From a virus (Duplodnaviria > Heunggongvirae > Uroviricota > Caudoviricetes): DNA of 64,000 nucleotides. Position numbers and translations under genes: made by a program. Where the stretch lies: IMG/VR virus record IMGVR_UViG_3300044630_003672. One strand, written 5' to 3'. This document shows, piece after piece, positions 5,641-22,546 of this stretch (positions are counted from its first letter, which is position 1; every line of letters starts with the position of its first letter). The notes below the pieces were generated by a model. It made no database searches. It was not told where the DNA came from and was given only the letters and a program-made list of their open reading frames with translations.

Positions 5641-5828
5641 TGAGAAGATTGTTTAGAAGCCGTTATGAGAAGAAAATAGCAGGTATATGTGGTGGGTTAG
5701 CACTTTATACAAATAGTGACCCATCGGTTTGGAGAATCGTTTTTCTAACCCTAATATTTGCACCCGTACCCGTTATTATGTTTTACTTTATAGCTTGGGC
5801 GATAATACCTAAACATCACGCATTATAA
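5640..5828 (+). CDS. PspC-domain membrane protein
   Basis: 'RSRYEKKIAGICGGLALYTNSDPSVWRIVF' followed by a TM helix, the canonical PspC domain signature. ATGA overlap with iscU. Confidence 0.7.
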   Translation: MRRLFRSRYEKKIAGICGGLALYTNSDPSVWRIVFLTLIFAPVPVIMFYFIAWAIIPKHHAL

Positions 5829-6140: not shown

Positions 6141-6473
6141 ATGGTAACACTACAACCTAAAGCATTAGAGCATGTAATTGAATTAATGGTGGAAGGTGGT
6201 TTAACACCTGATACGCATAACTTACGAGTTGGTGTGAAGGGTGGTGGGTGTAGTGGATTATCTTACACAATGGATTTTGATGATAAGATAGAACCAACCG
6301 ATGAAGTAGTTCAGGTGGATGGTGGATTGAAAGTAGTAATTGATAGAAAGAGTTTACTATATCTTTATGGTACTCAATTAACATATTCAGATGGATTAAA
6401 TGGTAAAGGATTCCAATGGGAAAATCCAAACGCTAGTAGAACCTGTGGATGTGGTGAATCATTCTCCCTATGA
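6141..6473 (+). CDS. A-type Fe-S cluster carrier (IscA/SufA/ErpA, HesB family)
   Basis: '[15 protein letters not shown]' and a C-terminal '[11 protein letters not shown]', which are the three conserved Cys of HesB/IscA. Confidence 0.85.
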
Positions 6474-6972: not shown

Positions 6973-7512
6973 ATGAGACGTAAGATTATTTTCATTGATG
7001 TAGATGGACCGTTGGCGTGGGGAACGTGGGGTGATGGCAGAGTTACCCTAAATGAAGCAACTAAAACTTTTACGATACCATACCCTTGGGTTGAAGAAGA
7101 TTGTCAAGCACTTGAAAAAATTTGTAATGAAACCAATGCAAGTTTGGTAGTGAGTTCAGATTGGAAAAAACATTTTAGTTTTATTCAGTTAAAGCGTATA
7201 TTTCAATACTATGGAATTACGGCACCAATTGTAGATATCACAACCCATATGAGTACCAGACAAATGGGAATTTGGAATAAGATGAGTAATTCAACTTTGG
7301 AATTTGATAGAGCACATCAAATTGTAAAATGGGCAAAGGATAATAAGATTAGTAATTGGATTGCAATTGATGATATGAAATTAAGTGCAGAGTTCAAATG
7401 GATGAAACCTCGTATTCCAATGTGGAGGCATGTGCAGGTTGATGGTGATTTTGGGATTGGTGGACGATTAAGAGATAAAATTGATGAATGTATTAATAAA
7501 TTAAACCGATAA
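6973..7512 (+). CDS. HAD-superfamily-like hydrolase (putative)
   Basis: 'IIFIDVDGPL' resembles HAD motif I (DxDG). Confidence 0.45.
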   Translation: MRRKIIFIDVDGPLAWGTWGDGRVTLNEATKTFTIPYPWVEEDCQALEKICNETNASLVVSSDWKKHFSFIQLKRIFQYYGITAPIVDITTHMSTRQMGIWNKMSNSTLEFDRAHQIVKWAKDNKISNWIAIDDMKLSAEFKWMKPRIPMWRHVQVDGDFGIGGRLRDKIDECINKLNR

Positions 7513-7514
7513 AA

Positions 7515-8795
7515 ATGAGTAAAAGACAGCAAGTTTTAGAAAACGAAAGAAAACTTATTGAGAAATTGCAGAGTGATATGTTGGATGAATTGAATCTTGA
7601 ATTAGATGGAGATGTTCCAGAAGAACTTCTTGATGCAATTAGAAATGCTCACGATGAAGCGGTTGGTAGTGGCGGTAGTGCTACTAATGAAGTAACAACC
7701 GGTCAACCATATCGTTTGAGTGATTCGGATGATTTTCCATTCGGTACTTATGTTCAAAATCAAACAGGTAGAATTGTAACAAAACATTTCCGAATTAGTG
7801 ATGAATACCAAATCAAACAGGCTCCGTTTCTTGCTATGGTTAAGGATATGGGTTTTAATAAAATTTATGTCAGAGAGTACTATGGGCACAATAATTATGG
7901 AGCAACAGAAGTGTGGGAAAAAAGAACAGGTGGTTCAGTTACATTGATTAATATATCCAATGTAATTCGTAAGTGGACGGCCAAAGTTAAGAAATCATTC
8001 AAAGATAGTATTGGTGTAGATGTACAAGTGTTTTCAAATGATGAATCTCAATTATATACCGAATTGGTTGAGAAGATTATCGGTTTAGGTAAGAAACGAA
8101 AGCACGAAAGTAATAATATCGCATTGGTTATCCAAACTCCAAGAGGATATGATACAACATCGTTTGAATTACCTGACCAGAAGTTAGATATTGAGTTGGG
8201 ATATGGTAAGGCATTTAAACCAATCCACGAAAAGATTATCAATACACTTAATAAAAAGAATGGTAAAGGATTAGTTCTATTGCATGGAACACCGGGTACT
8301 GGTAAGACTCACTACTTAAAGTATATCGCAAGTAAGATTAAGGATAAGAGAGTTCTATTCATCCCACCATACTTGGCAGATTTCATCACATCACCGGAGA
8401 TGACACCTTTCCTAATTCAAAATAGTAATTCAATTCTATTCATTGAAGATGCGGAAAGAGTAATTACGGATAGAAACAATGGTGGAGCTAATGGGGTATC
8501 AAACATCCTTAACATTACCGATGGTATATTAAGTGATATTCTAAAAATTCAAATTGTGGCAACATTCAATATGGATAAAGCTAAGATTGATTCGGCACTA
8601 TTAAGAAAGGGAAGATTGATTGCAGAACATAAATTCGATGCCTTACCAATTGATGATGCTAATAATCTAATTAAACATTTAGGTAAAGAGCATGTTGCAA
8701 CCAAACCAATGACATTAACTGAAATATATAATTTAGATGAGGCAGAATACAAATCGGAAGACAAGTATTCACCAATAGGATTTAATAGATATTAA
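7515..8795 (+). CDS. classical AAA ATPase (C-terminal AAA domain)
   Basis: Walker A 'LLHGTPGTGKTHYL', Walker B 'ILFIEDAE', second region of homology 'ALLRKGRL'. Confidence 0.8.
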   Translation: MSKRQQVLENERKLIEKLQSDMLDELNLELDGDVPEELLDAIRNAHDEAVGSGGSATNEVTTGQPYRLSDSDDFPFGTYVQNQTGRIVTKHFRISDEYQIKQAPFLAMVKDMGFNKIYVREYYGHNNYGATEVWEKRTGGSVTLINISNVIRKWTAKVKKSFKDSIGVDVQVFSNDESQLYTELVEKIIGLGKKRKHESNNIALVIQTPRGYDTTSFELPDQKLDIELGYGKAFKPIHEKIINTLNKKNGKGLVLLHGTPGTGKTHYLKYIASKIKDKRVLFIPPYLADFITSPEMTPFLIQNSNSILFIEDAERVITDRNNGGANGVSNILNITDGILSDILKIQIVATFNMDKAKIDSALLRKGRLIAEHKFDALPIDDANNLIKHLGKEHVATKPMTLTEIYNLDEAEYKSEDKYSPIGFNRY

Positions 8796-8796
8796 T

Positions 8797-9141
8797 ATGA
8801 ATTGGATTAAGACATATAAAATACATTTACTACTTGTGATAGCTACATTGGCTTTCTTTTCAACAATGGTTTATTATTTTAATTTAGTAGATGAAAACTA
8901 CGAGTTAAAAGAACGAATAATTACGTTGGAAGAAAAAGTTAATTTATTAGATAGTTATCCATACGAACATTCAAAAATAGAAAACAATGACAGAGTTACT
9001 GATTTTCCTAAACATAATGATTTTGGAAATTGTACTCAGCATAGACAATGCTGCTGTACTGGCTGCGATGGTAAAGGAACTGCCAAAAGACCAACAAAAG
9101 AAAGCACTAACATACGGTATAGCAGGAGCTTACCTTTTTAG
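8797..9141 (+). CDS. hypothetical membrane/coiled-coil protein; 3' end uncertain because it overlaps TerC
   Basis: N-terminal TM followed by a coiled coil. The last roughly 50 codons overlap the TerC frame and may not be translated. Confidence 0.35.
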   Translation: MNWIKTYKIHLLLVIATLAFFSTMVYYFNLVDENYELKERIITLEEKVNLLDSYPYEHSKIENNDRVTDFPKHNDFGNCTQHRQCCCTGCDGKGTAKRPTKESTNIRYSRSLPF

Positions 9142-9637
9142 AGGATTGGCCTTACTATTTGCATCGGTTCTTATCAAATTGGTATGGTTAAAAGTAGCAG
9201 GTGGCTTATATCTTATGTATTTAGCATATAACGCCCTATCATCAAAAGTTGAAACGGATGGTGGTAGTAAGATGACAATTAAGATACCATTCTTATCAGC
9301 ATTATGGTCTACAATCGTAGCAATTGAGATGATGGATTTGGTATTCAGTATTGATAATGTATTTGCCGCTGTTGCATTCACCCCTAACTTATGGTTGATA
9401 TGTGGTGGTGTGTTTATTGGTATCCTTGCTATGAGATTTGCAACAACAAAGTTTGTGAAAGTATTAGAGAAGAATCCAATATTGGAGAGAGTAGCATATT
9501 GGGTAATTGGAGCATTGGGATTGAAGTTAGTATCATCGTATTGGTTGCATGATTTGAATACGGAAGCGATTGATGCCGTATTTTCAATCTTAACCTTATT
9601 AGCATTTATAATTCCTTTAATAATAAAAAAGAAATAA
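8987..9637 (+). CDS. TerC-family integral membrane protein
   Basis: Repeated 'SIDNAAV' and 'FSIDNVFAAVAF' motifs with multiple TM helices. Confidence 0.8.
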   Translation: MTELLIFLNIMILEIVLSIDNAAVLAAMVKELPKDQQKKALTYGIAGAYLFRGLALLFASVLIKLVWLKVAGGLYLMYLAYNALSSKVETDGGSKMTIKIPFLSALWSTIVAIEMMDLVFSIDNVFAAVAFTPNLWLICGGVFIGILAMRFATTKFVKVLEKNPILERVAYWVIGALGLKLVSSYWLHDLNTEAIDAVFSILTLLAFIIPLIIKKK

Positions 9638-9640
9638 ATT

Positions 9641-9880
9641 ATGATTACCCCTTTTTGCTACATCGGGGCCCATAACTGGGAGTACCGAAAAGAAAAACAC
9701 GAATGTAAAGGACATCCACATGGTAGAGATGTTATTCGAGTTGTTGTTAGAGAATGTAAATGGTGTGGACATAGGGAACATCATACCCTTCCAAGAACAA
9801 ATAGGAAGTTTGGAAATTGGAAATCATTTGATGATATTGGTAAAGAAGATTGTATAGATATTAAAAGAATTTACGAATGA
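9641..9880 (+). CDS. Cys/His-rich small protein
   Basis: 'HECKGHPHG...CKWCGHREHH'. Confidence 0.45.
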   Translation: MITPFCYIGAHNWEYRKEKHECKGHPHGRDVIRVVVRECKWCGHREHHTLPRTNRKFGNWKSFDDIGKEDCIDIKRIYE

Positions 9881-10269
9881 TATTCAGAACGAGAAAATTA
9901 ATTAAGCCGGAAGATTTAAATGCCAGAGGTACACTATTTGGTGGACAGGTATTGAAGTGGATTGATGAAGAAGCATCCATATTTACAATTTGTCAATTAG
10001 GTGAACGTAGTATTGTTACAAAGGCAATGAGTGAAATCAACTTTGTAGCATCTGCAAAAACAGGTGATATCATTGAGATAGGTTGTCAGTTAGTACAATT
10101 TGGTACAACATCGGTAACAATAAGTTGTGAAGTACGAAACAAAGATACAAAACAAACAATTATCCGAATAGATAAAATTGTATTTGTTGCAGTAGATGAA
10201 AACGGAAGACCAAAGCCACACAACAAACCATCCGATGAAGATGATTTAAGATTTGAAACATATAATTAA
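9877..10269 (+). CDS. acyl-CoA thioesterase, hotdog fold (YciA-like)
   Basis: 'KPEDLNARGTLFGGQVLKWIDEEASI...GTTSVTISCEV', the hotdog thioesterase pattern. Confidence 0.8.
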   Translation: MIFRTRKLIKPEDLNARGTLFGGQVLKWIDEEASIFTICQLGERSIVTKAMSEINFVASAKTGDIIEIGCQLVQFGTTSVTISCEVRNKDTKQTIIRIDKIVFVAVDENGRPKPHNKPSDEDDLRFETYN

Positions 10270-10271
10270 TA

Positions 10272-10829
10272 ATGAAAAAAGAATGGGTATGTAGTAAATG
10301 TGGCCAATCAACTTTGGATGTTGATATAGATTATCTTATAGGATATGACCATATTTCATGTCTATTAAAAACGGGGTTACCTAAATTACAAAATTGGAAT
10401 AAGTTAGAAGGGCAAGAATTTGATGTAATGGGAGTCTCTATGAGAATGCAAAATGCCGAAGTTGATATTGAGATTGATAGATACACAGTTTGGTTAATTG
10501 ATAAGGAAGTAACAACCGAACCACTAATGAGAGTTGATATGTATTTGGCTGATAAAGAAATTGATATTAAAACATTCAGACCAGATACAATTTCACCACC
10601 ATTTCATACTCGTAAGCAAATAACCAAAGACCATATTAAAGACCCATCTATCTTTATACAAACAATTGGAATGATGATGATGGGTGACCCTGAAATAAGA
10701 AAGGTTTTGGACTACCTATCGGAAATGAATGGTAATATTGGTGCAAGAAGTGGAATGAGAGGTGGAATTGTGAATCACGTACTAAATAGTGGTATTACTA
10801 TAACATTTGGTTCAGCAAGTCTTTGGTAA
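10272..10829 (+). CDS. hypothetical protein
   Basis: 185-aa ORF. Confidence 0.5.
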   Translation: MKKEWVCSKCGQSTLDVDIDYLIGYDHISCLLKTGLPKLQNWNKLEGQEFDVMGVSMRMQNAEVDIEIDRYTVWLIDKEVTTEPLMRVDMYLADKEIDIKTFRPDTISPPFHTRKQITKDHIKDPSIFIQTIGMMMMGDPEIRKVLDYLSEMNGNIGARSGMRGGIVNHVLNSGITITFGSASLW

Positions 10830-10855
10830 TATCAATAATTTTTCGTATCTTTACA
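10822..10855 (+). promoter_or_regulatory. Bacteroidota-type promoter
   Basis: 'CTTTGGTAAT-N19-TATCTTTACATTATG'. ATG 10858 follows directly. Confidence 0.6.
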
Positions 10856-10857: not shown

Positions 10858-11196
10858 ATGAATTTATTAATAGGGTTTCTTTATGGATTAGTGGCACAGG
10901 TATTAACCTTTTTACAATTACAGGGTAGTATCAAATATGGTTGGTATGAAAAATATCCAATCATAATTATTTTAGCATCAATACCTTCGGGATGGTTGTT
11001 TCTAAAATCGGTACAACATTTTGTATTGGCATTTGATGGTGAGATTTGGCCATCTCGTCTTTTGGGATACGGTATTGGGGTTATTATATTTACCCTAATG
11101 AGTTGGCAATTGTTTGGTGAGCATTTAAATACTAAAACATTGGTTTGTTTGGGATTGAGTGTGGCGATAATATTGATTCAAATACTTTGGAAATGA
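10858..11196 (+). CDS. membrane protein
   Basis: Multi-TM ORF. Start moved to the ATG just after the promoter, because the track's Met 10807 precedes the promoter. Confidence 0.45.
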   Translation: MNLLIGFLYGLVAQVLTFLQLQGSIKYGWYEKYPIIIILASIPSGWLFLKSVQHFVLAFDGEIWPSRLLGYGIGVIIFTLMSWQLFGEHLNTKTLVCLGLSVAIILIQILWK

Positions 11197-11435
11197 TAAT
11201 AAACATTCTACCGGATGAATTGGAACCGGAATTTGTAAATAGTTGGAAGATGGGAGTTTTAAAAGAACCATCCATTGATTACGCTACAAACGCCATACAT
11301 TGTTGGTTTGAAGGTAATGATGTAATTATTTTCAGATTTCATAAATACGGGTGGATAAACGATAATAAGTACAATAAATATTTTGTAAACGCTGGGCCAG
11401 CGGGTATAACAATAAGAATAGAAAAAACGGCATAG
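11193..11435 (+). CDS. hypothetical protein
   Basis: ATGA overlap with the upstream stop. Confidence 0.4.
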   Translation: MIINILPDELEPEFVNSWKMGVLKEPSIDYATNAIHCWFEGNDVIIFRFHKYGWINDNKYNKYFVNAGPAGITIRIEKTA

Positions 11436-11436
11436 T

Positions 11437-12285
11437 ATGAATATAGTAGTAACAGGCGGAGTTGGTTTCGTAGGAACTAATTTAGTAAAAAGACTTCACA
11501 ACGAAGGACATAAAGTAATTGTAATTGATGATTATTCTACTGGTAAAGTAGAAAATCAAATAGAAGGAGTACGGTACTTACCAATGAATGTTGAACAAAT
11601 AGATTACATCAGCGGAGAAGAAGTTGATATATGTTTTCATTTAGCGGGATTGAGTAGAATTCAACCATCATTCGAAACCCCATCGGAGTTTTTCAGAGTT
11701 AATACATCTGGAACGGAAGCGGTTTGTGAGTGGGCTAGAAACTGGAATGTAAAGGTAGTATATTCGGGTTCATCTTCACAATGGCATGACCCATATCAAT
11801 CACCTTATGCCATGTATAAGAAGTTAGGTGAAGATATTTGTAAAATGTATCGTAAAGTATTTGGTACTAATATTGAGATAGCTCGTTTCTATAATGTGTA
11901 TGGCCCAACGGAAATAACCGAAGGTGAGTGGGCTGCTGTAATTGGATTATGGAGAGGGCAGATTACGGAAGGGAAACAGATTACAATAGTTGGTGATGGT
12001 GAGCAAAGGAGAGATTTTACGCATGTTGATGATATTGTTGATGGTTTAATTAAGATTGCATTTAGTGATGAAAAACACGAAGATGCTTGGGAATTGGGTA
12101 CTGGATTTAATTATTCAATTAATGAAGTGGCTGATATCTTTATTGAAAAATTTGGATGTGAGAAACTTTATATAGATAATCAAAAAGGAAATTACAAAGA
12201 AACACGTAGAGAGAATGATGATGCATTAAATAGGCTTGATTGGAGACCAAAGGATGTATTAAGAGAGTATATTGAAAATTTATAA
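11437..12285 (+). CDS. NAD-dependent epimerase/dehydratase (extended SDR)
   Basis: N-terminal Rossmann 'VVTGGVGFVGTNL', 'YSGSS...Y...K' catalytic region, typical of sugar-nucleotide epimerases and dehydratases. Confidence 0.8.
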   Translation: MNIVVTGGVGFVGTNLVKRLHNEGHKVIVIDDYSTGKVENQIEGVRYLPMNVEQIDYISGEEVDICFHLAGLSRIQPSFETPSEFFRVNTSGTEAVCEWARNWNVKVVYSGSSSQWHDPYQSPYAMYKKLGEDICKMYRKVFGTNIEIARFYNVYGPTEITEGEWAAVIGLWRGQITEGKQITIVGDGEQRRDFTHVDDIVDGLIKIAFSDEKHEDAWELGTGFNYSINEVADIFIEKFGCEKLYIDNQKGNYKETRRENDDALNRLDWRPKDVLREYIENL

Positions 12286-12296
12286 AAACAATAATT

Positions 12297-12455
12297 ATGA
12301 GTGCAATCGAAATTATCGGACTTTCTATGATAGCTAGTGGGTTGTTCATCGCTTACCATATGTGGAAAGCACCAATGATGGATGAGAAAACTGGAAAGAT
12401 TATAAAGGAAGGCAACAAATTATCAGACCTCTTTAAGAAAAAAAATAAGTTATGA
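12297..12455 (+). CDS. small membrane protein (52 aa)
   Basis: 'MSAIEIIGLSMIASGLFIAYHMW...'. Not in the ORF track. Confidence 0.3.
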   Translation: MSAIEIIGLSMIASGLFIAYHMWKAPMMDEKTGKIIKEGNKLSDLFKKKNKL

Positions 12456-13024
12456 AAGTAGAATTTAAAGACTCATTCTTTGAGAGCTTAGAGAAATTGG
12501 TATGGTATGATAGCAACCTATGGAAAGTTTGGTCTGCTATAAGATATGATATTCCATTGTTCTTTAAGAATGTATGGAGATTCAGAAAGGAGTTATACAA
12601 TCACCAGTGGTGGGATTATCGTTTCCATTTAGAAATGATGTATCGCTCTTTGAGTATTATGGAGAAGGGAATGAGTGAAAAAGGAATAGAAGTTGCTGAA
12701 ACCCGAAATATAAAGTTAATAAAGATGCGTAGAGCATTGGAGTTATTGAAGCATAAGTTGGATGATGATTATATCCAAAGAGCAGAGGATGAGTTGGGTA
12801 AGATAAATCGTAGTGAATTTGAGTTTGAGAAAACGGAAGATGGAAATTATAGATTGATAGATAACGATACGCCAGCTGAGAAGAAGCATGCTAGGAAAGT
12901 ATATAAGAGAGCAAGAGTTATAGAAGAAAAGGAGTGGAAGGAATTATGGGACATCTTCAAAGGGAAAAAATTTACTACTTGGGAGAAATACGATGGTAGT
13001 GATTTGAGAGGATGGTGGGACTAG
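12452..13024 (+). CDS. hypothetical protein
   Basis: 190-aa ORF. Confidence 0.5.
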   Translation: MKVEFKDSFFESLEKLVWYDSNLWKVWSAIRYDIPLFFKNVWRFRKELYNHQWWDYRFHLEMMYRSLSIMEKGMSEKGIEVAETRNIKLIKMRRALELLKHKLDDDYIQRAEDELGKINRSEFEFEKTEDGNYRLIDNDTPAEKKHARKVYKRARVIEEKEWKELWDIFKGKKFTTWEKYDGSDLRGWWD

Positions 13025-13060
13025 AAGTCCAATAGAGAGGTAAACAAACAAAAACAATAT

Positions 13061-13261
13061 ATGGTGGGAATTATTATTTTTGTTGTTGCCGCAACAGCGT
13101 TACTAAGCTGGTCATGGGTAAGAGGAATTGACCACATGAAAAAGAATCATCCTGATTACAAAGGAGAAGATTTTTTGGACTGGGGAGATGATGATGTGAC
13201 TAAAACCGCAGGTAGAGATGGTTGGGATGACAACATTGTACACACAGAAGGGGATTTTTAG
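13061..13261 (+). CDS. small membrane protein
   Basis: N-terminal TM. Confidence 0.4.
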   Translation: MVGIIIFVVAATALLSWSWVRGIDHMKKNHPDYKGEDFLDWGDDDVTKTAGRDGWDDNIVHTEGDF

Positions 13262-13340
13262 TATCAACTAAATCAATTCATTTAGGTTATGTTTAGACAT
13301 GACAAGGCAGAGTATTATCTAAAAATTAAATTATAAAAAT

Positions 13341-13904
13341 ATGTTACCATTAAAAGAAGCCATAGCTGAAAAGCACTCTTTGGCAGAAAAGATGACATTT
13401 AATCAAAGAATGTTTAAAGGAGAATTATCAAACGAAGAATACATTTTGTATTTGTGTCAGCAATTGGCAATATTTGATGCAATTGAAGTACATGAATTAC
13501 CACACCCAGCTTTAGATAGAGCTGGTAAGGTATTTGAGGACATTAAAGAATTGATGGGAGAAACTCAAATTCAAATTACACCATTGGTAGCAACGAATGA
13601 ATATCGTAAATACCTTCGTACATTGAGTAAAGAAGAAATACTTCCACACGTTTACCTAAACTACTTAGCAATTATGTTTGGTGGGCAGATGATGAAAAAG
13701 AATGTACCTGGAAGTGGTAAGATGTATGAGTTTGAGGGTGATGTTAGAGAAATTGCCGGAACGATTAGAGCAATTCAAAAAGATGAATGGGCAGATGAAG
13801 CAAACAAAGCATTGGATTACAACATAACTATATTAGATGAATTACAAAGAGTATCTGAATCAGCTAGCGTGGACGTTGAAGGAGATGGTGGAGAAGGCGC
13901 CTAA
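13341..13904 (+). CDS. heme oxygenase
   Basis: HO-family signatures 'EKHSLAEKMTF', 'YLNYLAIMFGGQMMKK' (cf. 'AHAYTRYMGDLSGGQVLKK') and 'ANKALDYNITILDEL'. Confidence 0.85.
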   Translation: MLPLKEAIAEKHSLAEKMTFNQRMFKGELSNEEYILYLCQQLAIFDAIEVHELPHPALDRAGKVFEDIKELMGETQIQITPLVATNEYRKYLRTLSKEEILPHVYLNYLAIMFGGQMMKKNVPGSGKMYEFEGDVREIAGTIRAIQKDEWADEANKALDYNITILDELQRVSESASVDVEGDGGEGA

Positions 13905-14466
13905 TTGCCAACCATTAGAAACCGAAGATTATGGATGGGATAATTTTAGATATGAATCAAAGTTATTTCGTATGGCTCACGTGGAAAGATATGGTGATGG
14001 TAAAATAGAAGTACTACACTTTACAACATTCCCACATAAAGATTCACCAGAGCCTATTTTTGGATTTGATGTTATATCAACTGAAAAAATGGTAACGGGT
14101 GCATATATGGATTTGAGTCCTGGTCTTAAAACATATCCTTTTGATGATGGTATGGATTTTAAACAAAGAAAAAAGATACCTGAATGGGCTACTGTTTTTT
14201 CCGATAGATTTATTATGTTAAAACCGGAATCCGATGAGGAATTGGTTCGTTTTTGTAATTGGGTAGTGGAAAAATACGATTGGTATCTTAATTCACTTCT
14301 TTGGTTGGAAAAGAAAACCGATAATATTGAAGGTGTAATAGAGAAACAAAATATTTATTGTCAAATACAGGCTACTAACCCAAGAACGTTTTCAGCATTG
14401 AAAGCACTAATTGGTGAGGAAAAAGCAAAGTATTTTATGGAAAACATATTATTCCCAAAGATATGA
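13837..14466 (+). CDS. ferredoxin-dependent bilin reductase (PcyA/PebS/PcyX family)
   Basis: 'FRMAHVERYGDGKIEVLHFTTFPHKDSPEPIFGFDVISTEKMVTGAYMDLSP' aligns with the FDBR core 'FRKMHLE...LDILHCVMFP...PMFGCDLVGG...ADLSP'. Start may be Met17 (13885). Confidence 0.8.
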   Translation: MNYKEYLNQLAWTLKEMVEKAPNCQPLETEDYGWDNFRYESKLFRMAHVERYGDGKIEVLHFTTFPHKDSPEPIFGFDVISTEKMVTGAYMDLSPGLKTYPFDDGMDFKQRKKIPEWATVFSDRFIMLKPESDEELVRFCNWVVEKYDWYLNSLLWLEKKTDNIEGVIEKQNIYCQIQATNPRTFSALKALIGEEKAKYFMENILFPKI

Positions 14467-14837
14467 CACCAAAAAGAATATACATAGATTTTGGCACTCC
14501 CATAGAACAATGGGCAGATGCGAATAAGGGAGTGATAATGGATTCGATATACTCTAACGTATTTGATTTTCTTCAATCAGATGAAGATGATAGAGTTATA
14601 TTACAAGTTACTCCTAAATTGGCACAAAAACCAAAAACACCACGAACATTTGAACCACCTATTAATGTTGATTTTATAATATCAAAAGATGATATAGATT
14701 TAACATTAAAGAAAATGATGGATTATTATATTGAAGTTGAGGAATATGAAAAATGTGCAGAAATACTTAAACTGCAAAATGAGAAAGATAATCCAAAACC
14801 AAAGAAAAAAAGAGGAAGAAAACCTAAAAATATTTAA
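14463..14837 (+). CDS. hypothetical protein (basic C-terminus)
   Basis: 124-aa ORF overlapping the upstream stop. Confidence 0.45.
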   Translation: MTPKRIYIDFGTPIEQWADANKGVIMDSIYSNVFDFLQSDEDDRVILQVTPKLAQKPKTPRTFEPPINVDFIISKDDIDLTLKKMMDYYIEVEEYEKCAEILKLQNEKDNPKPKKKRGRKPKNI

Positions 14838-14874
14838 ATTATATTTATATACACAAATAAATAAAGTTTAAATA

Positions 14875-15315
14875 ATGTTCGTACCAAACCATCTTCATCT
14901 TTTGGTAAAGGGTTATGTAAAGACTCCACCAAAAACAGACAAAGTGTTAAACATCTGGTTTACACAATTAGTACAAAATGTGGGAATGAAAGTAGTAGCC
15001 GGCCCCACTTCGGTTTATGTTAATGAACCGGGTAACGAAGGGATAACCGGAACTGTTACATTAGCTACATCACACGCATCAATTCACGTTTGGGATAATG
15101 AAAACCCAGCGATGTTTCAGTTTGATTTATATAGTTGTTCAAATTTTAAACCAAAAGATGTTTTAAATCATTTAGACGATTGGTTTGGATTAACCGAAGC
15201 TCATTGGCAATTTATTGACAGAAACGGGAATAATTTTAAAGTGATTGATTCTGGACACTTTAAGAAAAGTAAGATAAAACAAATAATAGATATATTTAAA
15301 AGAAAGCAGGTTTAA
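14875..15315 (+). CDS. speD: S-adenosylmethionine decarboxylase proenzyme (pyruvoyl type, SpeD/SpeH-like)
   Basis: 'GITGTVTLATSHASIHVWDNENPAMFQFDLYSCSNF' matches the SpeH core '...LLAESHISIHTWPE...DVFTCG', with the Ser at the cleavage site. Confidence 0.85.
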   Translation: MFVPNHLHLLVKGYVKTPPKTDKVLNIWFTQLVQNVGMKVVAGPTSVYVNEPGNEGITGTVTLATSHASIHVWDNENPAMFQFDLYSCSNFKPKDVLNHLDDWFGLTEAHWQFIDRNGNNFKVIDSGHFKKSKIKQIIDIFKRKQV

Positions 15316-15959
15316 TGAATTTGGATGATATTAAATATGGTAATACAACTAGAGAGCAAGAAGCTAAAGTTAAAGAGGATAGAGCCGGTATATTAAAGGC
15401 TGCTATTGAAACTGGTATTATCAAAGATGTATTAGAAAATCATCCATTTCCAGCTAACTCATCTGATGAAACAAAAAACGAATTAGAATATCTTACAAAG
15501 ATAACTAATAACGCAGATGAAGATGATATCCGTTTTTGTAAGTTGATAGAAACAAATCACTATGATTTTTTTGTTATTGTAGCAAAGAAATTGGGATTAG
15601 ATGTGAGTAAAGAAGAAATTCTAAAATGGGTTGGTGATATAGACCCTATAACGTTTTACTTAAAGGATAAATTCAATCGTCCAAGACCTTATCAATTAGC
15701 TAAAGAGTTAAGATTGGATTTACATCCGATTACCGCTACTGATGCAAATTCGGCAGCATATCCATCTGGACACACAATGGATTTTTTAGTTATACTTTAT
15801 CACTTTGGAAAGATGAATCCAGCATTAGCGGAAGAGCTTGATGATTTTTATCACGAGATAAAGAGAGCAAGAGAATTAAGTGGATTACACTATCCATCTG
15901 ATAGAAAAGTATCGGAATATATATTTAAACAATTGGTTAAACACAACCTAATAAAATAA
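15315..15959 (+). CDS. PAP2-superfamily phosphatase (putative)
   Basis: PAP2 tripartite motif 'KFNRPRP', 'YPSGHT' and 'SGLHYPSD'. Confidence 0.6.
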   Translation: MNLDDIKYGNTTREQEAKVKEDRAGILKAAIETGIIKDVLENHPFPANSSDETKNELEYLTKITNNADEDDIRFCKLIETNHYDFFVIVAKKLGLDVSKEEILKWVGDIDPITFYLKDKFNRPRPYQLAKELRLDLHPITATDANSAAYPSGHTMDFLVILYHFGKMNPALAEELDDFYHEIKRARELSGLHYPSDRKVSEYIFKQLVKHNLIK

Positions 15960-15998: not shown

Positions 15999-16244
15999 GT
16001 GATAGTAAAAACAATAAACAAATTAAAGGACAAAAGCAATCGCTTAATGCTTTACAAAGACATGGCATTGATGTTGGCTCTATTCTTCAATCCGTTTGGA
16101 TTCGATGCCGTTCAGTATTCCCTAATACTACTGACGGGAAGTTTATGGAAAGCGAACTTCGTTTTGTATTGTATTGCGGGGTTATTTTTTGGACTTTATA
16201 TCTGGTTTACGAAGTGTTTAAATAAATTTGGTAATATCAAATAA
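15999..16244 (+). CDS. small membrane protein (alternative frame 15989..16225 less likely)
   Basis: Two TM segments. The 3' end overlaps the -33 of the next promoter. Confidence 0.35.
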   Translation: MIVKTINKLKDKSNRLMLYKDMALMLALFFNPFGFDAVQYSLILLTGSLWKANFVLYCIAGLFFGLYIWFTKCLNKFGNIK

Positions 16245-16260
16245 AATTCGTATATTTGTA
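16227..16260 (+). promoter_or_regulatory. Bacteroidota-type promoter
   Basis: 'AAATTTGGTAAT-N19-TATATTTGTAT'. Confidence 0.65.
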
Positions 16261-18101: not shown

Positions 18102-18135
18102 TTTGGCGGATTCGTATATTTTTTGTATATTTACA
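18102..18135 (+). promoter_or_regulatory. Bacteroidota-type promoter
   Basis: 'ATTTGGCGGA-N20-TATATTTAC'. Confidence 0.5.
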
Positions 18136-18213
18136 TATACTTATAAATTCTTATGTGCGTAACTCATTGATAATCAATGAATTAAAAAAGTTATCCACAT
18201 TTTGAAAAAAAGA

Positions 18214-18247
18214 TTTGGCCGTTTCAAAAAAATGTACTATCTTTACA
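18214..18247 (+). promoter_or_regulatory. Bacteroidota-type promoter driving tRNA-Met
   Basis: 'GATTTGGCCG-N19-TATCTTTAC', 20 nt upstream of the tRNA. Confidence 0.6.
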
Positions 18248-18266
18248 AAGTTCTTTAAAATAATAT

Positions 18267-18338
18267 CGTGAGGTAGAGCAGTGGTAGCTCGCCAGGCTCA
18301 TAACCTGGAGGCCGGTGGTTCGAATCCATCCCTCGCAA
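18267..18338 (+). tRNA. tRNA-Met(CAT), initiator-like
   Basis: Cloverleaf by hand-folding: D 'GAGC/GCTC', anticodon loop 'CTCATAA', T-loop 'TTCGAAT'. C1:A72 mismatch as in bacterial initiator tRNA. Confidence 0.8.
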
Positions 18339-18449
18339 CAAAATCTATAATAGTGGTATCTGATACTGACAGCTCTTTGGGAGTGATGGGTGTGAAAGCA
18401 GATTGAAAAGGGTACAACCCAACCCCATTATAATAGATTTAAAAAAAGA

Positions 18450-18483
18450 TTTGGTAGTTTGAAAAAACTTTCGTATCTTTAAC
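18450..18483 (+). promoter_or_regulatory. Bacteroidota-type promoter (tandem unit 1)
   Basis: 'GATTTGGTAGTTTGAAAAAACTTTCGTATCTTTA'. Confidence 0.6.
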
Positions 18484-18570
18484 AAAGTTAAGGTTGAAGC
18501 CAACAATAATAAAACCGATTGTGTGAGGGGCGCAAGCTCCTAATAAAGCCGGATACCTTAATAACTTTTA
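18484..18570 (+). ncRNA. candidate short promoter-driven transcript (sRNA 1)
   Basis: 87-nt segment between tandem promoters containing a GNRA hairpin 'GGGGCGCAAGCTCC'. No ORF. Confidence 0.3.
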
Positions 18571-18588
18571 AAAAAAGATTTGGTAGTT

Positions 18589-18612
18589 TGAAAAAATTAT
18601 CGTATCTTTATG
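18589..18612 (+). promoter_or_regulatory. Bacteroidota-type promoter (tandem unit 2)
   Basis: Near-identical copy: 'GATTTGGTAGTTTGAAAAAATTATCGTATCTTTA'. Confidence 0.6.
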
Positions 18613-18669
18613 AAGATTCAAAAATAAAGTAGTTGATTGGTTTGACCAGAAAACAAAATTGAGAATCTT
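18613..18669 (+). ncRNA. candidate short transcript (sRNA 2)
   Basis: Flanked by the inverted repeat AAGATTC...GAATCTT, with an internal TGGTTTGACCA hairpin. Confidence 0.3.
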
Positions 18670-18679
18670 TAAAAATAAA

Positions 18680-18713
18680 TTTGGTAGTTTGAAAAAGATT
18701 TCGTATCTTTATA
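18680..18713 (+). promoter_or_regulatory. Bacteroidota-type promoter (tandem unit 3)
   Basis: 'AAATTTGGTAGTTTGAAAAAGATTTCGTATCTTTA'. Confidence 0.6.
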
Positions 18714-18749
18714 AAGTTATCAAATAACAAAGTTCTTTACATTATTGAA

Positions 18750-19700
18750 ATAATTTACACATAATAACTTCGTGTTATATAGTGTACAAAATGGCCGCCT
18801 ATGGTCATTAAATAAACTACGAAAGTAGGATAAAGTGAAATGTTTGGTTAAGCATTTTGCGGTTCATATCCCTGTAAGGTTATGAGCTTGAGTAGGCAAG
18901 TGAGATATCATTTGGGCTTTGTATGTGAGGGTAACACTGTAGCAGAAGAGTTTGGGTGACTGAGCAATTGTAGATTGTTCAGTTGAGTTCGGAAGAACGA
19001 TAAGAATAACTCATAGGATTATTGTAAGAAATAGAAAGCTAATCCCTTTTTATTATTGCGTGATTCAATACCAAAGTGGTCTTGACAATCAAGCTATCCG
19101 AAAGGACGTAAGATAAGACTGTGTACGGGTGGTGCCGTTACTATCCTTTAATATGGGACACCAATCCCTATTAATGAAGATGACTTGAAGTATGGCGTTG
19201 AGATAACGCATCGGGTAGTATAGTATTCTGTTCTTCAAAAGGGGACAGAGCTAGTGGTGAACCGCTACCTGAATCCATCTACGAACCAAAACTTTTATCA
19301 AATGCGGATTTGATTATTCAATTATAAATAAAAGCAAAAGTGTTCATCAGTTGTGACCGAAAGGTGCATACATAGTTGGGAGTTGTTCCCAGCCACAAAC
19401 GCCCGCAAGGCGAATGTGATATCTACGAAAAGCTTATAGACCCGCAAGGTTTAATCAGTTCGGCAGGATTGAATAAGGGGAGTAATAGGTGAGTAAGTTA
19501 CAACTTTAAGAGTGGTTAATCTATAATAACCTGCATTGACTGGTACATCTCAAAAGGATGTGGAAACGAAAGGAAACAAAATAATCTTTCTAAAGCTAGT
19601 TATCCCAACGTATATTCTCAGCGTTTTTACTTTCTCAATGGTTGCATATTGGTTCGATTCCAATAGAGAGAGCTACTAACAACTGAAAAGTTGTTCGTTT
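18750..19700 (+). ncRNA. candidate large structured non-coding RNA (ORF-free, GC-enriched, about 0.9 kb)
   Basis: No ORF longer than about 60 aa on the + strand. Locally higher GC than the genome. Repeated GNRA-closed hairpins (CCGCAAGG twice), a T-arm-like 'ATTGGTTCGATTCCAAT' near the 3' end, and a strong terminator at 20013. Confidence 0.4.
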
Positions 19701-20012
19701 CATATCTTAATTTTTATTACAACTTGAAAAGGGGGGCATATCAATATGTTCCCCAATTTAAGCCTGATAAAACTAACAAAGATTCGGAAAATAAAATTAT
19801 TATATACTTATATAAACAAACAGTGATGAAAACTTTAACACTACATACAAATTGTTCGCAACCTACATTGAGAAATGAGTGGGCTGGGATTCGTATGTTT
19901 AGTACGTTAAGTAATCCGGCAAACTTAAATTTAGGCAAGGTGGATTATATTAGTACGAAGCAGTTAGAGGACACTGATGTTGGGTAATTACATAACTTAA
20001 CTTAAATAGAAA

Positions 20013-20049
20013 GACCTCTAACTGAATAAAATCGGTTAGAGGTTTTTTC
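20013..20049 (+). terminator. Rho-independent terminator
   Basis: ACCTCTAAC-N12-GTTAGAGGT stem followed by TTTTTT. Confidence 0.75.
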
Positions 20050-20056
20050 GTTTTAA

Positions 20057-20128
20057 GCTCCTTTGGCGCAGCGGTAGCGCAGCAGACTGTTAATCTGTTG
20101 GTCCTTGGTTCGAATCCAAGAGGGAGCG
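20057..20128 (+). tRNA. tRNA-Asn(GTT)
   Basis: Acceptor GCTCCTT/AGGGAGC, anticodon loop CTGTTAA, T-arm CTTGG-TTCGAAT-CCAAG. Confidence 0.8.
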
Positions 20129-20161
20129 CAAGATTAAGTTCTTTGACATATTGGATAAGTA

Positions 20162-20236
20162 GGAAGTTTAGCTCAGTTGGTTTAGAGCATCACGTTTACA
20201 CCGTGAGGGTCATAGGTTCGAATCCTGTAACTTCCA
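20162..20236 (+). tRNA. tRNA-Val(TAC)
   Basis: Acceptor GGAAGTT/AACTTCC, anticodon loop TTTACAC. Confidence 0.85.
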
Positions 20237-20341
20237 CAACATGTTCCATACACATTCCTACAATCTCTCAGTTGAAAGCTGTTGTAGGATTGAGTGAGTA
20301 GCACGATAGGGCTATCAAATGTGAGTTATATGGAACGCCAT

Positions 20342-20423
20342 TGGGGTATCGCATAGTGGCAATTGCGGCTGACTGTAAATCAGCTCTCATTTGAGTTCGG
20401 CGGTTCGAGTCCGTCTACCCCAA
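20342..20423 (+). tRNA. tRNA-Tyr(GTA), long variable arm
   Basis: Acceptor TGGGGTA/TACCCCA, anticodon stem GCTGA/TCAGC, loop CTGTAAA. Confidence 0.75.
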
Positions 20424-20427
20424 CACC

Positions 20428-20500
20428 GGTGATGAAGCTAACTAGGTAGAAGCGAAAGACTGAAAATCTTTAGGAAGTGGTTCGATACCACTCATTACCA
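20428..20500 (+). tRNA. tRNA-Phe(GAA)
   Basis: Acceptor GGTGATG/CATTACC, anticodon stem AAAGA/TCTTT, loop CTGAAAA, T-arm AGTGG-TTCGATA-CCACT. Position 8 is atypical. Confidence 0.55.
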
Positions 20501-20522
20501 CTTAACAATTAAAAAAACAATT

Positions 20523-20732
20523 ATGGCAGATTTTAATCATGGAGTTGGTACATTAATAAAAGAGTTGGTGACACCAAAAGGAAAAATTGAAATGGGTAGT
20601 AAAGGAATAGTAACTGCGTATCTACCAGAAGATGGTAAGTTCGCAGTAGATTTTGGAAATGGACAATGGATAACATTTGATAAAATATCATTGGACGAAT
20701 ATTGTAAAATAGAATTAGAAGATAACAATTAA
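20523..20732 (+). CDS. hypothetical protein
   Basis: 69-aa ORF between tRNAs. Confidence 0.4.
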   Translation: MADFNHGVGTLIKELVTPKGKIEMGSKGIVTAYLPEDGKFAVDFGNGQWITFDKISLDEYCKIELEDNN

Positions 20733-20772
20733 AAACAAATACTATGGAAAGTGACAAGTATGACAAAAGTCA

Positions 20773-20846
20773 GACCTCTTAGCTCAGTTGGTTAGAGCAC
20801 TATACTTTTAATATAGGAGTCAATGGTTCGAATCCATTAGGGGTCA
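20773..20846 (+). tRNA. tRNA-Lys(TTT)
   Basis: Acceptor GACCTCT/AGGGGTC, anticodon loop CTTTTAA. Confidence 0.85.
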
Positions 20847-20921
20847 CAAAAAGTTCCGAACTTAATATTGAGTTAAAATAATGATGTACACATTATACGA
20901 TAGGATGGAAACTTATCACAT

Positions 20922-20995
20922 TGGGAATTAGCGTAGTCAGGTATCGCGCTAGCTTTGGGAGCTAGAGGCCGTAGGTTCGAATCCTGCATTCCCAA
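20922..20995 (+). tRNA. tRNA-Pro(TGG)
   Basis: Anticodon stem CTAGC/GCTAG, loop TTTGGGA, T-arm GTAGG-TTCGAAT-CCTGC. Confidence 0.75.
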
Positions 20996-21043
20996 CCGAT
21001 ATGGTTCGCACTACACAGCATTGGGAAATAGGAAGTGCAAAAT

Positions 21044-21117
21044 TGGAATATAGCTCAATTGGTTAGAGCATCCGTCTGATACGCGGAAGGTTAAAAGTTC
21101 GATTCTTTTTATTCCAA
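21044..21117 (+). tRNA. tRNA-Ile(GAT)
   Basis: Acceptor TGGAATA/TATTCCA, anticodon loop CTGATAC. Confidence 0.85.
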
Positions 21118-21123
21118 CAATAT

Positions 21124-21194
21124 ATCGGTGTAGTGTAATGGTAGCATACCAGTCTCCAAAACTGTTTGTGAGGGTTCGAGTCCTTCCACCGGTG
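21124..21194 (+). tRNA. tRNA-Trp(CCA)
   Basis: Anticodon loop CTCCAAA, T-loop TTCGAGT, acceptor ATCGGTG/CACCGGT. Confidence 0.7.
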
Positions 21195-21198
21195 CTAT

Positions 21199-21271
21199 GG
21201 CTCTTTGGTGTAATGGATTAGCACACGAAGCTACGGACTTCGGAGTATGGGTTCGAATCCTTTAGGGGCTA
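21199..21271 (+). tRNA. tRNA-Arg(ACG)
   Basis: Anticodon stem CGAAG/CTTCG, loop CTACGGA. The acceptor has several G-U pairs. Confidence 0.7.
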
Positions 21272-21277
21272 CAAAAT

Positions 21278-21348
21278 GGCGAGTTGTTAGAGTGGTTATA
21301 TGGAGCTCTGCAAAAGCTTTTACACAAGTTCGAATCTTGTACTCGCCT
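21278..21348 (+). tRNA. tRNA-Cys(GCA)
   Basis: Acceptor GGCGAGT/ACTCGCC, anticodon loop CTGCAAA, T-arm ACAAG-TTCGAAT-CTTGT. Confidence 0.7.
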
Positions 21349-21356
21349 CTTGATAT

Positions 21357-21428
21357 TGTGGGGAGATTAGGTAATCCGTTTGGTCTCATAAGCCAGATAT
21401 TCAGGTTCGATTCCTGGCCCCGCAACCA
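21357..21428 (+). tRNA. tRNA with CAT anticodon (elongator Met or Ile2-lysidine); encoded CCA; compact D-arm
   Basis: Acceptor TGTGGGG/CCCCGCA plus ACCA, anticodon loop CTCATAA, T-loop TTCGATT. The D region is short, so the fold is uncertain. Confidence 0.5.
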
Positions 21429-21431
21429 AAT

Positions 21432-21506
21432 GGTGTTTGAAGCATTAAGGTGATGCGCTAGTTTGTGGAGCTAGATAAGACGGTTCGATACCGTCCTTAC
21501 ACCCCA
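21432..21506 (+). tRNA. tRNA-His(GTG) with G-1
   Basis: Extra 5' G opposite discriminator C73. D-stem GCAT/ATGC, anticodon loop TTGTGGA, T-arm GACGG-TTCGATA-CCGTC, encoded CCA. Confidence 0.7.
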
Positions 21507-21508
21507 AC

Positions 21509-21597
21509 GGAGAATTGCCCGAGTGGACGATGGGGCCGGTTTGCTAAACCGTTGTACGATGAAAGTTGTACCGTTGGTTCGAATCCAACATTCTCCG
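21509..21597 (+). tRNA. tRNA-Ser(GCT), long variable arm
   Basis: Acceptor GGAGAAT/ATTCTCC, anticodon loop TTGCTAA, T-arm GTTGG-TTCGAAT-CCAAC. Confidence 0.8.
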
Positions 21598-21760
21598 CAT
21601 TAAATTGGACATTATGAAAAATGATAAGTTTGAAATTAATAGACGAAGTAATAAGTTATACCGAATAAGAAAAATAATAAGAGAAAACGGAGCTTGTATG
21701 ATATGTATAAGACGTTTGAAAGGTGGTATAAAAAAATATAAAACCTATTGTTAAAATAGA

Positions 21761-21794
21761 TTTGGTTATATCAGATATTATTCGTATATTTGTA
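21761..21794 (+). promoter_or_regulatory. Bacteroidota-type promoter driving the tRNA-Glu/Thr block
   Basis: 'GATTTGGTTATATCAGATATTATTCGTATATTTGTAT', 17 nt upstream of the tRNA. Confidence 0.65.
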
Positions 21795-21810
21795 TAACAT
21801 TAACATTAAC

Positions 21811-21882
21811 GCTCTGTTCGACTAAGGGTTAGGTCACATCCCTTTCACGGATGTAATACGGGTTCGAATCCCGTACAGAGTA
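21811..21882 (+). tRNA. tRNA-Glu(TTC)
   Basis: Acceptor GCTCTGT/ACAGAGT, anticodon stem CATCC/GGATG, loop CTTTCAC. Confidence 0.85.
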
Positions 21883-21982
21883 CAAAGGTTGATTGGGATA
21901 AGCATATTAGTATGCATAAATCGGTTAGAAATGCCAATCATAAAAGTAGATGTCCACGCACCCATCTTCTACTTTCCTAAAC

Positions 21983-22055
21983 GCCCGAGTAGCTCAGCAG
22001 GTAGAGCAACTGATTTGTAATCAGTAGGTCGCAAGTTCGATTCTTGTCTTGGGCT
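21983..22055 (+). tRNA. tRNA-Thr(TGT)
   Basis: Acceptor GCCCGAG/CTTGGGC, anticodon stem ACTGA/TCAGT, loop TTTGTAA. Confidence 0.85.
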
Positions 22056-22092
22056 CACATTATCGTTCTTTGACATATAGGAGAAATAAATT

Positions 22093-22350
22093 ATGGAAAT
22101 ATTATCATTCGTTTTAGGAATGTCTGTAGTGGTGGTTATCGCAGTGTCGATAGTTGCTGTTATTGGGCTTGTTAAGGCAAGAAAAATAGAAAAAGAATTA
22201 GAAAGCATCGGCGAAGATTTGTATCGTCAAGTTGATAGAAATCAAACTGACTTTAATCGTAGAGCAGATGAATTAGAAAATCACATCTTTTCTCAATTAG
22301 ATTCGAGATTGGATAAATTAGAACAAAAATTAACTAACAATAAAAAATAA
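22093..22350 (+). CDS. small membrane-anchored coiled-coil protein
   Basis: N-terminal TM (VVVVIAVSIVAVIGLV) followed by a charged coiled coil. Confidence 0.45.
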   Translation: MEILSFVLGMSVVVVIAVSIVAVIGLVKARKIEKELESIGEDLYRQVDRNQTDFNRRADELENHIFSQLDSRLDKLEQKLTNNKK

Positions 22351-22369
22351 AAATTAGTTAAAGAACGAT

Positions 22370-22440
22370 AATGTAATTTGGAGAGTTAGTTAATCGGTAT
22401 AATGTTGCCTTGTCACGGCAATGTGACGGGTTCGATTCCC
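22370..22440 (+). tRNA. tRNA-Asp(GTC)
   Basis: Acceptor GGAGAGT/ACTTTCC, anticodon stem TTGCC/GGCAA, loop TTGTCAC. Confidence 0.8.
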
Positions 22441-22442
22441 GT

Positions 22443-22544
22443 ACTTTCCGCAAGTAGTAAGAGCAGACGAAAGTTTAGTTTATGGTCAGTGCGCATATTC
22501 CATAGACGGCCGGTAGAAACATTGAGATATTAGACGTAGTATCT
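22443..22544 (+). ncRNA. structured inter-tRNA spacer (possible small RNA or processing element)
   Basis: 9-bp closing helix TAGTAAGAG...CTCTTACTA plus an inner hairpin GAGATA-N10-TATCTC. Confidence 0.3.
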
Positions 22545-22546
22545 CT

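Follow-up and report, generated by a model that had tools for sequence, protein, structure and literature searches.

Pairs of a heme oxygenase (HO) and a ferredoxin-dependent bilin reductase (FDBR) have already been published from phages of non-photosynthetic hosts, as the PcyX and pelagiphage cassettes and as the CB_2 cassette with methanotroph hosts (PMC11480375). The freshwater phage cassette CB_2, recovered from a crystal bog, carries vHemO and vPcyA and combines an HO with an FDBR of the Glu type in a phage of predicted alphaproteobacterial, and thus non-cyanobacterial, host; its PcyA has been shown to convert biliverdin to phycocyanobilin (PCB) (Nat Commun 2024, PMC11480375). The PcyX enzymes (GOS EBK42635, with HO EBK42634; structure 5OWG; Pelagibacter phage Mosig EXVC030M) carry Asp at position 76 of PcyA and make phycoerythrobilin (PEB) (PMC13446030). 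Cyanophages and cyanobacteria possess PcyA with ho1 (P-SSM4, P-RSM4, Synechocystis 2D1E), although the cyanophage pcyA usually does not adjoin an HO gene, and the cyanobacterial host has phycobiliproteins that use the product. In Bradyrhizobium sp. ORS278, a hemO-pcyA-alaS island with bphP joins an HO to a Glu-type PcyA outside the cyanobacteria and supplies PCB to a sensor, which makes it a model for bilin use other than light harvesting, and the pre-PcyA/BBAG clusters of heterotrophic bacteria place an FDBR with an HO in non-photosynthetic lineages (PNAS 2023, PMC10151467). Here we analyse a further HO-FDBR pair, in a stretch of 64,000 nucleotides from the caudoviricete IMG/VR record IMGVR_UViG_3300044630_003672 (hereafter the window), and we consider it probable that the pair is a two-enzyme heme-to-bilin auxiliary metabolic unit of a large uncultured Bacteroidota phage. 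The kind of cassette is already known; what is new is the enzyme clade, an HO lacking the distal Asp, and a Bacteroidota host signal.

A preliminary description of this DNA, made from its letters, had proposed a mini-cassette of two overlapping genes, and both open reading frames (ORFs) are indeed there, with Pfam matches above the cutoffs:

13341..13904, + strand: HO gene, 187 aa (Pfam PF01126, PDB sequence matches, AF2/Foldseek, dN/dS)
13837..14466, + strand: FDBR gene, PcyA-type, 209 aa (Pfam PF05996, triad, clade, dN/dS)
13837..13904, + strand: overlap of the HO 3' end and the FDBR 5' end, 68 nt, in different frames

The strings FRMAHVERY, IEVLHFTTFP, IFGFDVIS and AYMDLSP are all present in the 209-aa ORF. 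For many FDBR homologs the databases give an internal Met as the start (193 aa), but the N-terminus MNYxxYLxxxA, which is coded inside the overlap, is kept in homologs down to ~40% identity, and the long form and the overlap are therefore real. HO matches extend beyond the FDBR start in loci L015-L018 as well, and the overlap suggests translational coupling. Measured over the non-overlapping parts against five relatives, dN/dS is 0.10-0.20 for the HO and 0.04-0.16 for the FDBR; both genes are under purifying selection.

The FDBR is recognized by Pfam (Fe_bilin_red PF05996, E 1.6e-22, 80.7 bits against a cutoff of 31, residues 34-207) and by PHROGs (phrog_7278 'ferredoxin oxidoreductase', E 8.5e-23), and its best PDB matches are PcyX 5OWG (E 1.8e-19) and then PcyA. 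In the PDB alignments, Glu50, His61 and Asp78 correspond to Glu76, His88 and Asp105 of Synechocystis PcyA, the triad strictly needed for PCB synthesis (PMC13446030), and none of the three residues varies across 24 diverse homologs with identities as low as 31%. The conserved Asp and His, whose loss in an inactive reductase had been named beforehand as a ground for refutation, are both present, as is the Glu. Because the triad is complete, the enzyme is PcyA-type by its active site, and neither PcyX nor pre-PcyA: it has Glu50 where PcyX has Asp and stands apart from the PcyX clade (EBK42635/Mosig), and it has the equivalents of both Glu76 and His88, which pre-PcyA proteins (Pre-1/2/3) lack (PMC13446030). 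From the initial label of a 'PcyA/PebS/PcyX-like' core, the PcyA part therefore stands, while the PcyX part falls with the Glu, and an identity as PebS, PebA or PebB was rejected (blastp E 0.02-1.6; NCBIfam PebB 20 bits against a cutoff of 327). Among characterised enzymes, the PcyA of phage CB_2 comes closest, with 37.5% identity over 208 aa and 159 bits. Given the triad and the CB_2 precedent, PCB is the likeliest product, and on balance we lean towards it.

The relation to the known enzymes was assessed in neighbour-joining (NJ) trees of 85-126 sequences, computed from capped Kimura distances with bootstrapping, for which the input comprised representatives of a search of 1.84 billion proteins, IMG/VR loci, isolate phages and the labelled sequences of PMC11480375 Supplementary Data 6. 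The window FDBR falls in a clade of metagenomic and viral sequences only, with bootstrap values of 96-100 for the core, 95-97 with P0121 and P0124 and 81 with the sister group. Separate clades are formed by PcyX (5OWG and Mosig), by cyanobacterial and cyanophage PcyA, and by CB_2 with the alpha-proteobacterial 'PcyA*' sequences and P0140, L052 and L057, so that the window FDBR is placed outside both the cyanobacterial and the alpha-proteobacterial PcyA clades; the position inside the cyanobacterial/cyanophage PcyA clade that the preliminary description had set against its own proposal was not observed.

The same description had noted similar cassettes in cyanophages and on metagenomic phage contigs of uncertain host, and the pelagiphage Mosig and PMC11480375 show that phages of hosts other than cyanobacteria do carry them. 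Each of the known systems departs from the window in several respects. The CB_2 cassette is interrupted by one gene and linked to alaS, which is missing from the window, its reductase has Glu rather than Pro at the Asp220 position of PcyA, and its predicted host is alphaproteobacterial. Mosig, another phage of a heterotroph, has the same gene order with overlapping ends (HO 7394-7960 and FDBR 7947-8630 in locus L007), yet identity is 34% for the FDBR and 29% for the HO, and Mosig has GDLSGGQ in the HO where the window has AIMFGGQ. The cyanobacterial and cyanophage PcyA proteins share the triad and the fold family with the window FDBR at 25-29% identity. The Bradyrhizobium PcyA, at 31% identity, belongs to a genomic island of a bacterium, next to a phytochrome and together with a BphO-type HO (IEGSTMGGQ), whereas the window has no phytochrome gene; a globin of the BBAG kind was not detected beside the window cassette.

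The HO is likewise recognized by Pfam (Heme_oxygenase PF01126, E 4.3e-15, 56.5 bits against a cutoff of 23), while its match in sequence to the solved HOs (HO-1, HO-2, HmuO) is weak (E 1e-5). Its AlphaFold (AF2) model (pLDDT 78, pTM 0.78) superimposes in Foldseek on HmuO, HO-1, HO-2 and Synechocystis HO-1 with TM 0.73-0.78, and each of the top 50 PDB hits is a heme oxygenase (TM 0.68-0.78, probability 1.00); the predicted structure is the all-helical HO fold, with the last ~10 residues as a disordered tail. The proximal His12 aligns to the His of 'KEAHDRAE' in HO-2, Gly114-Gly115 align to the GG of the canonical GDLSGGQ, and these three residues are invariant in 24 homologs and 50 loci. The distal helix reads YLAIMFGGQ instead of the canonical Y(L/M)GDLSGGQ, which is kept in Mosig and other PcyX-linked HOs. 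According to a motif comparison over 50 loci, every HO paired with the window FDBR lineage has I, L, M or P for the distal Asp. Across the window and loci L001-L057, the HOs show NYLA(I/L)MFGGQ or another Asp-less variant in place of GDLSGGQ. Since BphO-type HOs also lack Asp at this site, and the BphO-type HO of Bradyrhizobium is functional (PMC11480375), the distal Asp is not universal. The substitution nevertheless marks out a co-evolved, uncharacterised type of HO.

Concerning the host, the preliminary description had argued from promoters for a Bacteroidota member, and both the promoters and the initiation signals agree with this proposal. Shine-Dalgarno (SD) motifs are found upstream of 4% of the window ORFs against a background of 12%, and adenine reaches frequencies of 0.78/0.73/0.68 at positions -12/-11/-10; A-rich, SD-less initiation is characteristic of Bacteroidetes (PMC6847099). 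Among four control phages, these signals resemble those of the Bacteroidota phage Cellulophaga phage phi38:1 (SD 0.11, adenine peak 0.76/0.76/0.62), and are unlike those of the cyanobacterial phages P-SSM4 (SD 0.28) and Microcystis phage Mel-JY01 (SD 0.25) and of Mosig, which infects SAR11 (SD 0.72), none of which has an adenine peak. The syntenic relative L006 encodes at 4708-4896 a 62-aa bS21 protein with Tyr54, of Bacteroidota type, and the phage matches of this bS21 include all five Mahaphages of >634 kb, which are predicted to infect Bacteroidetes. A scan of GTDB with the single FDBR protein found nothing, whereas a scan with an FDBR alignment found four loci, including an FDBR fragment, 51% identical to the sister-clade protein P0125 and without an HO, that occurs in the chromosome of a Spirosomataceae bacterium and in a metagenome-assembled genome of the Bacteroidetes. 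The chromosomal fragment (L014 6001-6420, Spirosomataceae bacterium RE-19 chromosome c3; also L012) is a truncated FDBR covering residues 59-198, situated in a gene-poor stretch with genes for LigA and a MATE transporter within a few kb, and has the appearance of relict phage DNA. The signature of low SD use and high adenine is seen in ~26 of 44 viral loci, while the others (GC content 0.37-0.46) are without it; several host groups thus carry the cassette, and a large block among them is Bacteroidota-like.

The promoters proposed for this DNA also stand out statistically. The pattern TTTG-N18-22-TAnnTTTG occurs at 13 sites where 3.85 are expected, and no shuffle reached 13. When TAnnTTT(G/A) is allowed, a family of ~22 near-identical sites emerges, with the consensus aaaTTTGGTAgaTTCAAAAAnnTTTCGTATaTTTG/A (also written TTTGGTA-N-TTCGTATATTTG; spacer form TTTG-N20-TAnnTTTG), all of them intergenic, on the + strand, which is the coding strand, and followed by an ORF or tRNA at a distance of 8-26 nt. 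Examples are found at 416, 2945, 6924, 10822, 16227, 18450, 18579, 18680, 21761, 23086, 39071, 43427, 46926, 51127 and 61836, and L006 carries the same family. The consensus of Bacteroidetes sigmaA, TTTG at -33 and TAnnTTTG at -7 with no G at 'nn' (PMC6847099; PMC9723704), is matched by the family, including the lack of G at the two variable positions. Around the cassette, the relevant elements are:

10822..10853, + strand: nearest upstream promoter, TTTGGTAATATCAATAATTTTTCGTATCTTTA
13300..13340, + strand: HO leader of ~40 nt, immediately before the HO start, AGGCAGAGTATTATCTAAAAATTAAATTATAAAAAT
16227..16258, + strand: next downstream promoter, start of the following unit, TTTGGTAATATCAAATAAAATTCGTATATTTG

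Because there is little space between the genes from 10858 to 15959, the HO and FDBR probably belong to a transcription unit that starts at the 10822..10853 promoter. According to the alignments, the HO leader is nearly invariant in relatives whose HO proteins diverge by 13-30%. As a repeated promoter motif it was rejected, being present in a single copy in the window; only a weak 6-bp hairpin with little covariation is predicted, at 13288-13305, and an operator or a promoter not read by sigmaA are possibilities for its function.

The two genes also travel together. In 42 of the 44 IMG/VR loci with FDBR relatives the HO lies directly upstream of the FDBR, and the other two end at a contig edge; the ORFs are intact in dozens of contigs. 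L001 and L004, which use SD sequences and have GC contents of 44% and 37%, have only the HO and FDBR genes in common with the window, and the pair therefore moves as a unit between phages. Metagenomic proteins include fusions of the two enzymes in a single polypeptide, in the order HO-FDBR or FDBR-HO (P0190; P0136, P0146, P0172, P0176, P0193), while an apparent HO-FDBR fusion in L027 was discarded as an artefact of ORF calling. In L001, a 218-kb phage contig, the region 8936-10642 contains a CpeT-family gene (PF06206) followed by HO and FDBR, an arrangement also found in L002 and L003, which suggests bilin handling or attachment in that lineage. A CpeT homolog was seen in L001-L003 and in cyanophage Sf-FP1 only, and is absent from the window.

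Taken as a heme-to-bilin unit of a Bacteroidota phage, the cassette could work as follows. Host RNA polymerase with sigmaA would read the TTTG/TAnnTTTG promoters of the phage early in infection, a timing that we infer for HO and FDBR as well, and the overlapping genes would be translated together. The HO would open host heme to biliverdin IX-alpha with release of Fe2+ and CO, and the FDBR would carry out a four-electron reduction of the PcyA type, most likely to PCB; this route, from heme to biliverdin with Fe2+ and CO and on to a reduced bilin, is what the enzyme families and their intact active sites imply. The window lacks a ferredoxin gene (Pfam gives no Fer2 or Fer4 match, and there are no ORFs with the Cys motif), and the electrons would therefore have to come from a ferredoxin or flavodoxin of the host. 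Since HO and FDBR are kept together, co-transferred and in some proteins fused, the reduced bilin itself is, in our view, what is selected, either as ligand or effector of a putative bilin-binding protein or as a pull on heme breakdown; the CpeT neighbour in one lineage likewise argues that the bilin matters. Released iron feeding the Fe-S assembly proteins IscU and IscA of the phage would be a co-benefit.

Several observations weigh against this reading. The deep FDBR nodes have support below 20 in the NJ trees. At the position of Asp220 the FDBR has Pro182, as in PcyX, and its score against the NCBIfam PcyA equivalog NF002760 is 97.3 bits, below the cutoff of 206, so that PCB is not assured. 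No globin, GAF or CpeT protein that could bind the bilin turned up in the window, and no canonical promoter lies directly before the HO. The assignment to a Bacteroidota member, which three tests support, draws on signals in the sequence. Finally, Ile111 occupies the position of the distal Asp (HO-1 Asp140, HmuO Asp136). Mutation of this Asp cripples HO-1 and HmuO, and the Asp-less HO may accordingly differ in catalysis or regiospecificity.

The last point leads to an alternative that we regard as possible though distinctly less probable than PCB formation, namely that the FDBR makes another bilin (PEB, phytochromobilin or a two-electron product of the 18(1),18(2)-dihydrobiliverdin (DHBV) type), or that the HO delivers a biliverdin other than the alpha isomer. 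Beside the PcyX-like Pro and a score far under the PcyA equivalog cutoff, the clade-wide change in the distal helix of the HO is in line with it, and small substitutions are able to switch the products of FDBRs (PMC13446030). The complete Glu/His/Asp triad speaks for PCB instead, as does CB_2, the nearest characterised enzyme, which is of the Glu type and makes PCB.

A second alternative concerns the purpose of the pathway: iron or heme salvage might be the only selected function, with the FDBR merely clearing inhibitory biliverdin. We consider this unlikely, but it has a tangible basis in the gene content upstream of the cassette:

5230-5640, + strand: IscU scaffold (NCBIfam TIGR01999, 209 bits, cutoff 192)
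5640-5828, + strand: PspC-domain ORF, between IscU and IscA
6141-6473, + strand: IscA/ErpA-like carrier (NCBIfam TIGR00049, 108 bits; Pfam match)

IscU and IscA, 7-8 kb upstream of HO and FDBR, share their early-gene region, and both are again found close to the pair in the P0030 contigs and in L006; at the place of PspC, relatives carry bS21 and L006 a 4Fe-4S ferredoxin. By their proximity, the two genes may provide a context for iron recycling by the cassette. A role in iron supply has been proposed in PMC11480375, and the window also encodes a 2-oxoglutarate (2OG)-Fe(II) oxygenase while offering no bilin acceptor. The conservation of the FDBR, however, exceeds what a clean-up enzyme would need: its triad is invariant, and it is kept in 42 of 44 loci, co-transferred and fused, with a homolog of CpeT-type bilin lyases beside the pair in one relative. 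Moreover, bacteria that acquire iron by means of an HO are not known to need an FDBR. In a more specific version of selection on the bilin, which we put forward tentatively and hold to be rather improbable, the bilin would act as a signal or cofactor by binding a protein of the phage or of the host, such as a sensor resembling bacteriophytochromes or globins, or an enzyme that it inhibits, and would give the infected cell a light- or redox-responsive switch, with an HO of a new type working independently of the distal Asp.

It is very improbable that the window belongs to a cyanophage whose cassette sustains the phycobilisome or phytochrome chromophore of a cyanobacterial host, in the manner of ho1, pcyA and pebS. 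For some window genes the best match among isolates is in a cyanophage, namely a Trp halogenase (36%), an AAA protein (57% to Microcystis phage Mel-JY01), speD and Kyano_Gp96; the relative L001 carries a CpeT homolog, and low SD use is also a trait of cyanobacteria. Close kinship with Mel-JY01 was nevertheless rejected, as just three window proteins match in a 50-kb stretch of that phage; the FDBR lies outside the cyanobacterial/cyanophage PcyA clade, no photosynthesis genes are found among the 139 ORFs of the window, and the promoters are of Bacteroidota type, whereas the cyanophage controls have no adenine peak and SD motifs at 25-28% of their ORFs against 4%. That HO and FDBR are decaying passengers without function, for which the missing distal Asp and the fragmentary copy in the Bacteroidota chromosome could be cited but no direct evidence, is effectively refuted by the conservation data (dN/dS of 0.04-0.20, intact ORFs in dozens of contigs, invariant catalytic residues).

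Read as a heme-to-bilin unit of a Bacteroidota phage, the locus bears on the question, stated in PMC11480375, of why phages of non-photosynthetic hosts keep pigment genes. It adds a large and abundant clade of phage FDBR and HO, found in metagenomes only and apart from both PcyX and the CB_2/alpha-proteobacterial PcyA; it adds an HO, co-evolved with its reductase, without a residue regarded as catalytically important; and it adds Bacteroidota as a putative host phylum, not tied to phage bilin genes in the literature searched. In that literature no paper combined bilin reductase, phage and Bacteroidetes, and PMC11480375 contains no mention of Bacteroidetes or flavobacteria. The phage cassette would thereby reach hosts for which no use of such pigments is known. 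Since Flavobacteria and Cytophagia can be cultured and manipulated genetically, the question would come within reach of experiments if the host is indeed one of the Bacteroidota.

The neighbourhood of the cassette contains two further ORFs of interest. Directly downstream lies

14463..14837, + strand: 124-aa ORF whose ATG overlaps the FDBR stop (ATGA), with a basic, AT-hook-like C-terminus

which has no family match in Pfam, PHROGs or NCBIfam and is kept downstream of the FDBR in 11 related loci; its membership in the pathway is uncertain. A 190-aa ORF at 12452-13024, with no match in Pfam, PHROGs, NCBIfam or isolate phages, was weighed as a possible bilin-binding partner but dropped: with 1767 homolog clusters, where the FDBR has 223, it belongs to the core genes of the phage lineage and has no special tie to the cassette. 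The top 120 of these 1767 public-metagenome clusters are at >=85% identity (that is, at least 85%), which indicates that the lineage is very abundant and microdiverse.

The window as a whole has ~139 ORFs, all on the + strand, a GC content of 33% and 26 tRNAs. Its identifiable genes include FolE, IscU, IscA, PspC, S-adenosylmethionine (SAM) lyase, speD, an epimerase, Trp halogenase, an ATP-dependent DNA ligase, Cpn10, cyclophilin and RNA-repair-like genes. At the DNA level, the search among isolate phages returned tRNA-sized matches only, and the best matches of its proteins are scattered over jumbo and huge phages and cyanophages. An FDBR of 98% identity is found on a 67.9-kb IMG/VR contig (UViG_3300032326_000687) and related contigs measure 160-310 kb; the source phage is probably larger than 150 kb.

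The RNA-repair-like genes lie within 6973-7512 and 43474-44677 and encode a HAD_SAK_2 protein, and a Metallophos phosphoesterase followed by a cREC_REC protein (cyclic-phosphate processing receiver). The 26 tRNA genes occupy 18267-25046 (+ strand) and cover nearly all amino acids, several of them being preceded by promoters of the Bacteroidota type, as at 21761 (tRNA-Glu) and 23086 (tRNA-Leu). A full-length GOLLD RNA is present at 19211-19624 (+ strand; Rfam RF02032, 306.8 bits against a gathering threshold of 150, E 6.9e-87), between the first tRNA-Met (18267-18339) and the dense tRNA block, whose start at 20057 follows closely, and four promoters are stacked at 18102-18711, before the ORF-free stretch leading into this RNA. 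At 56934-60077 (+ strand), ~nine consecutive ORFs of 100-108 aa, many beginning with MLTIENI, show weak pairwise similarity (three pairs at E<1e-3) and may form a fast-evolving array of paralogs.

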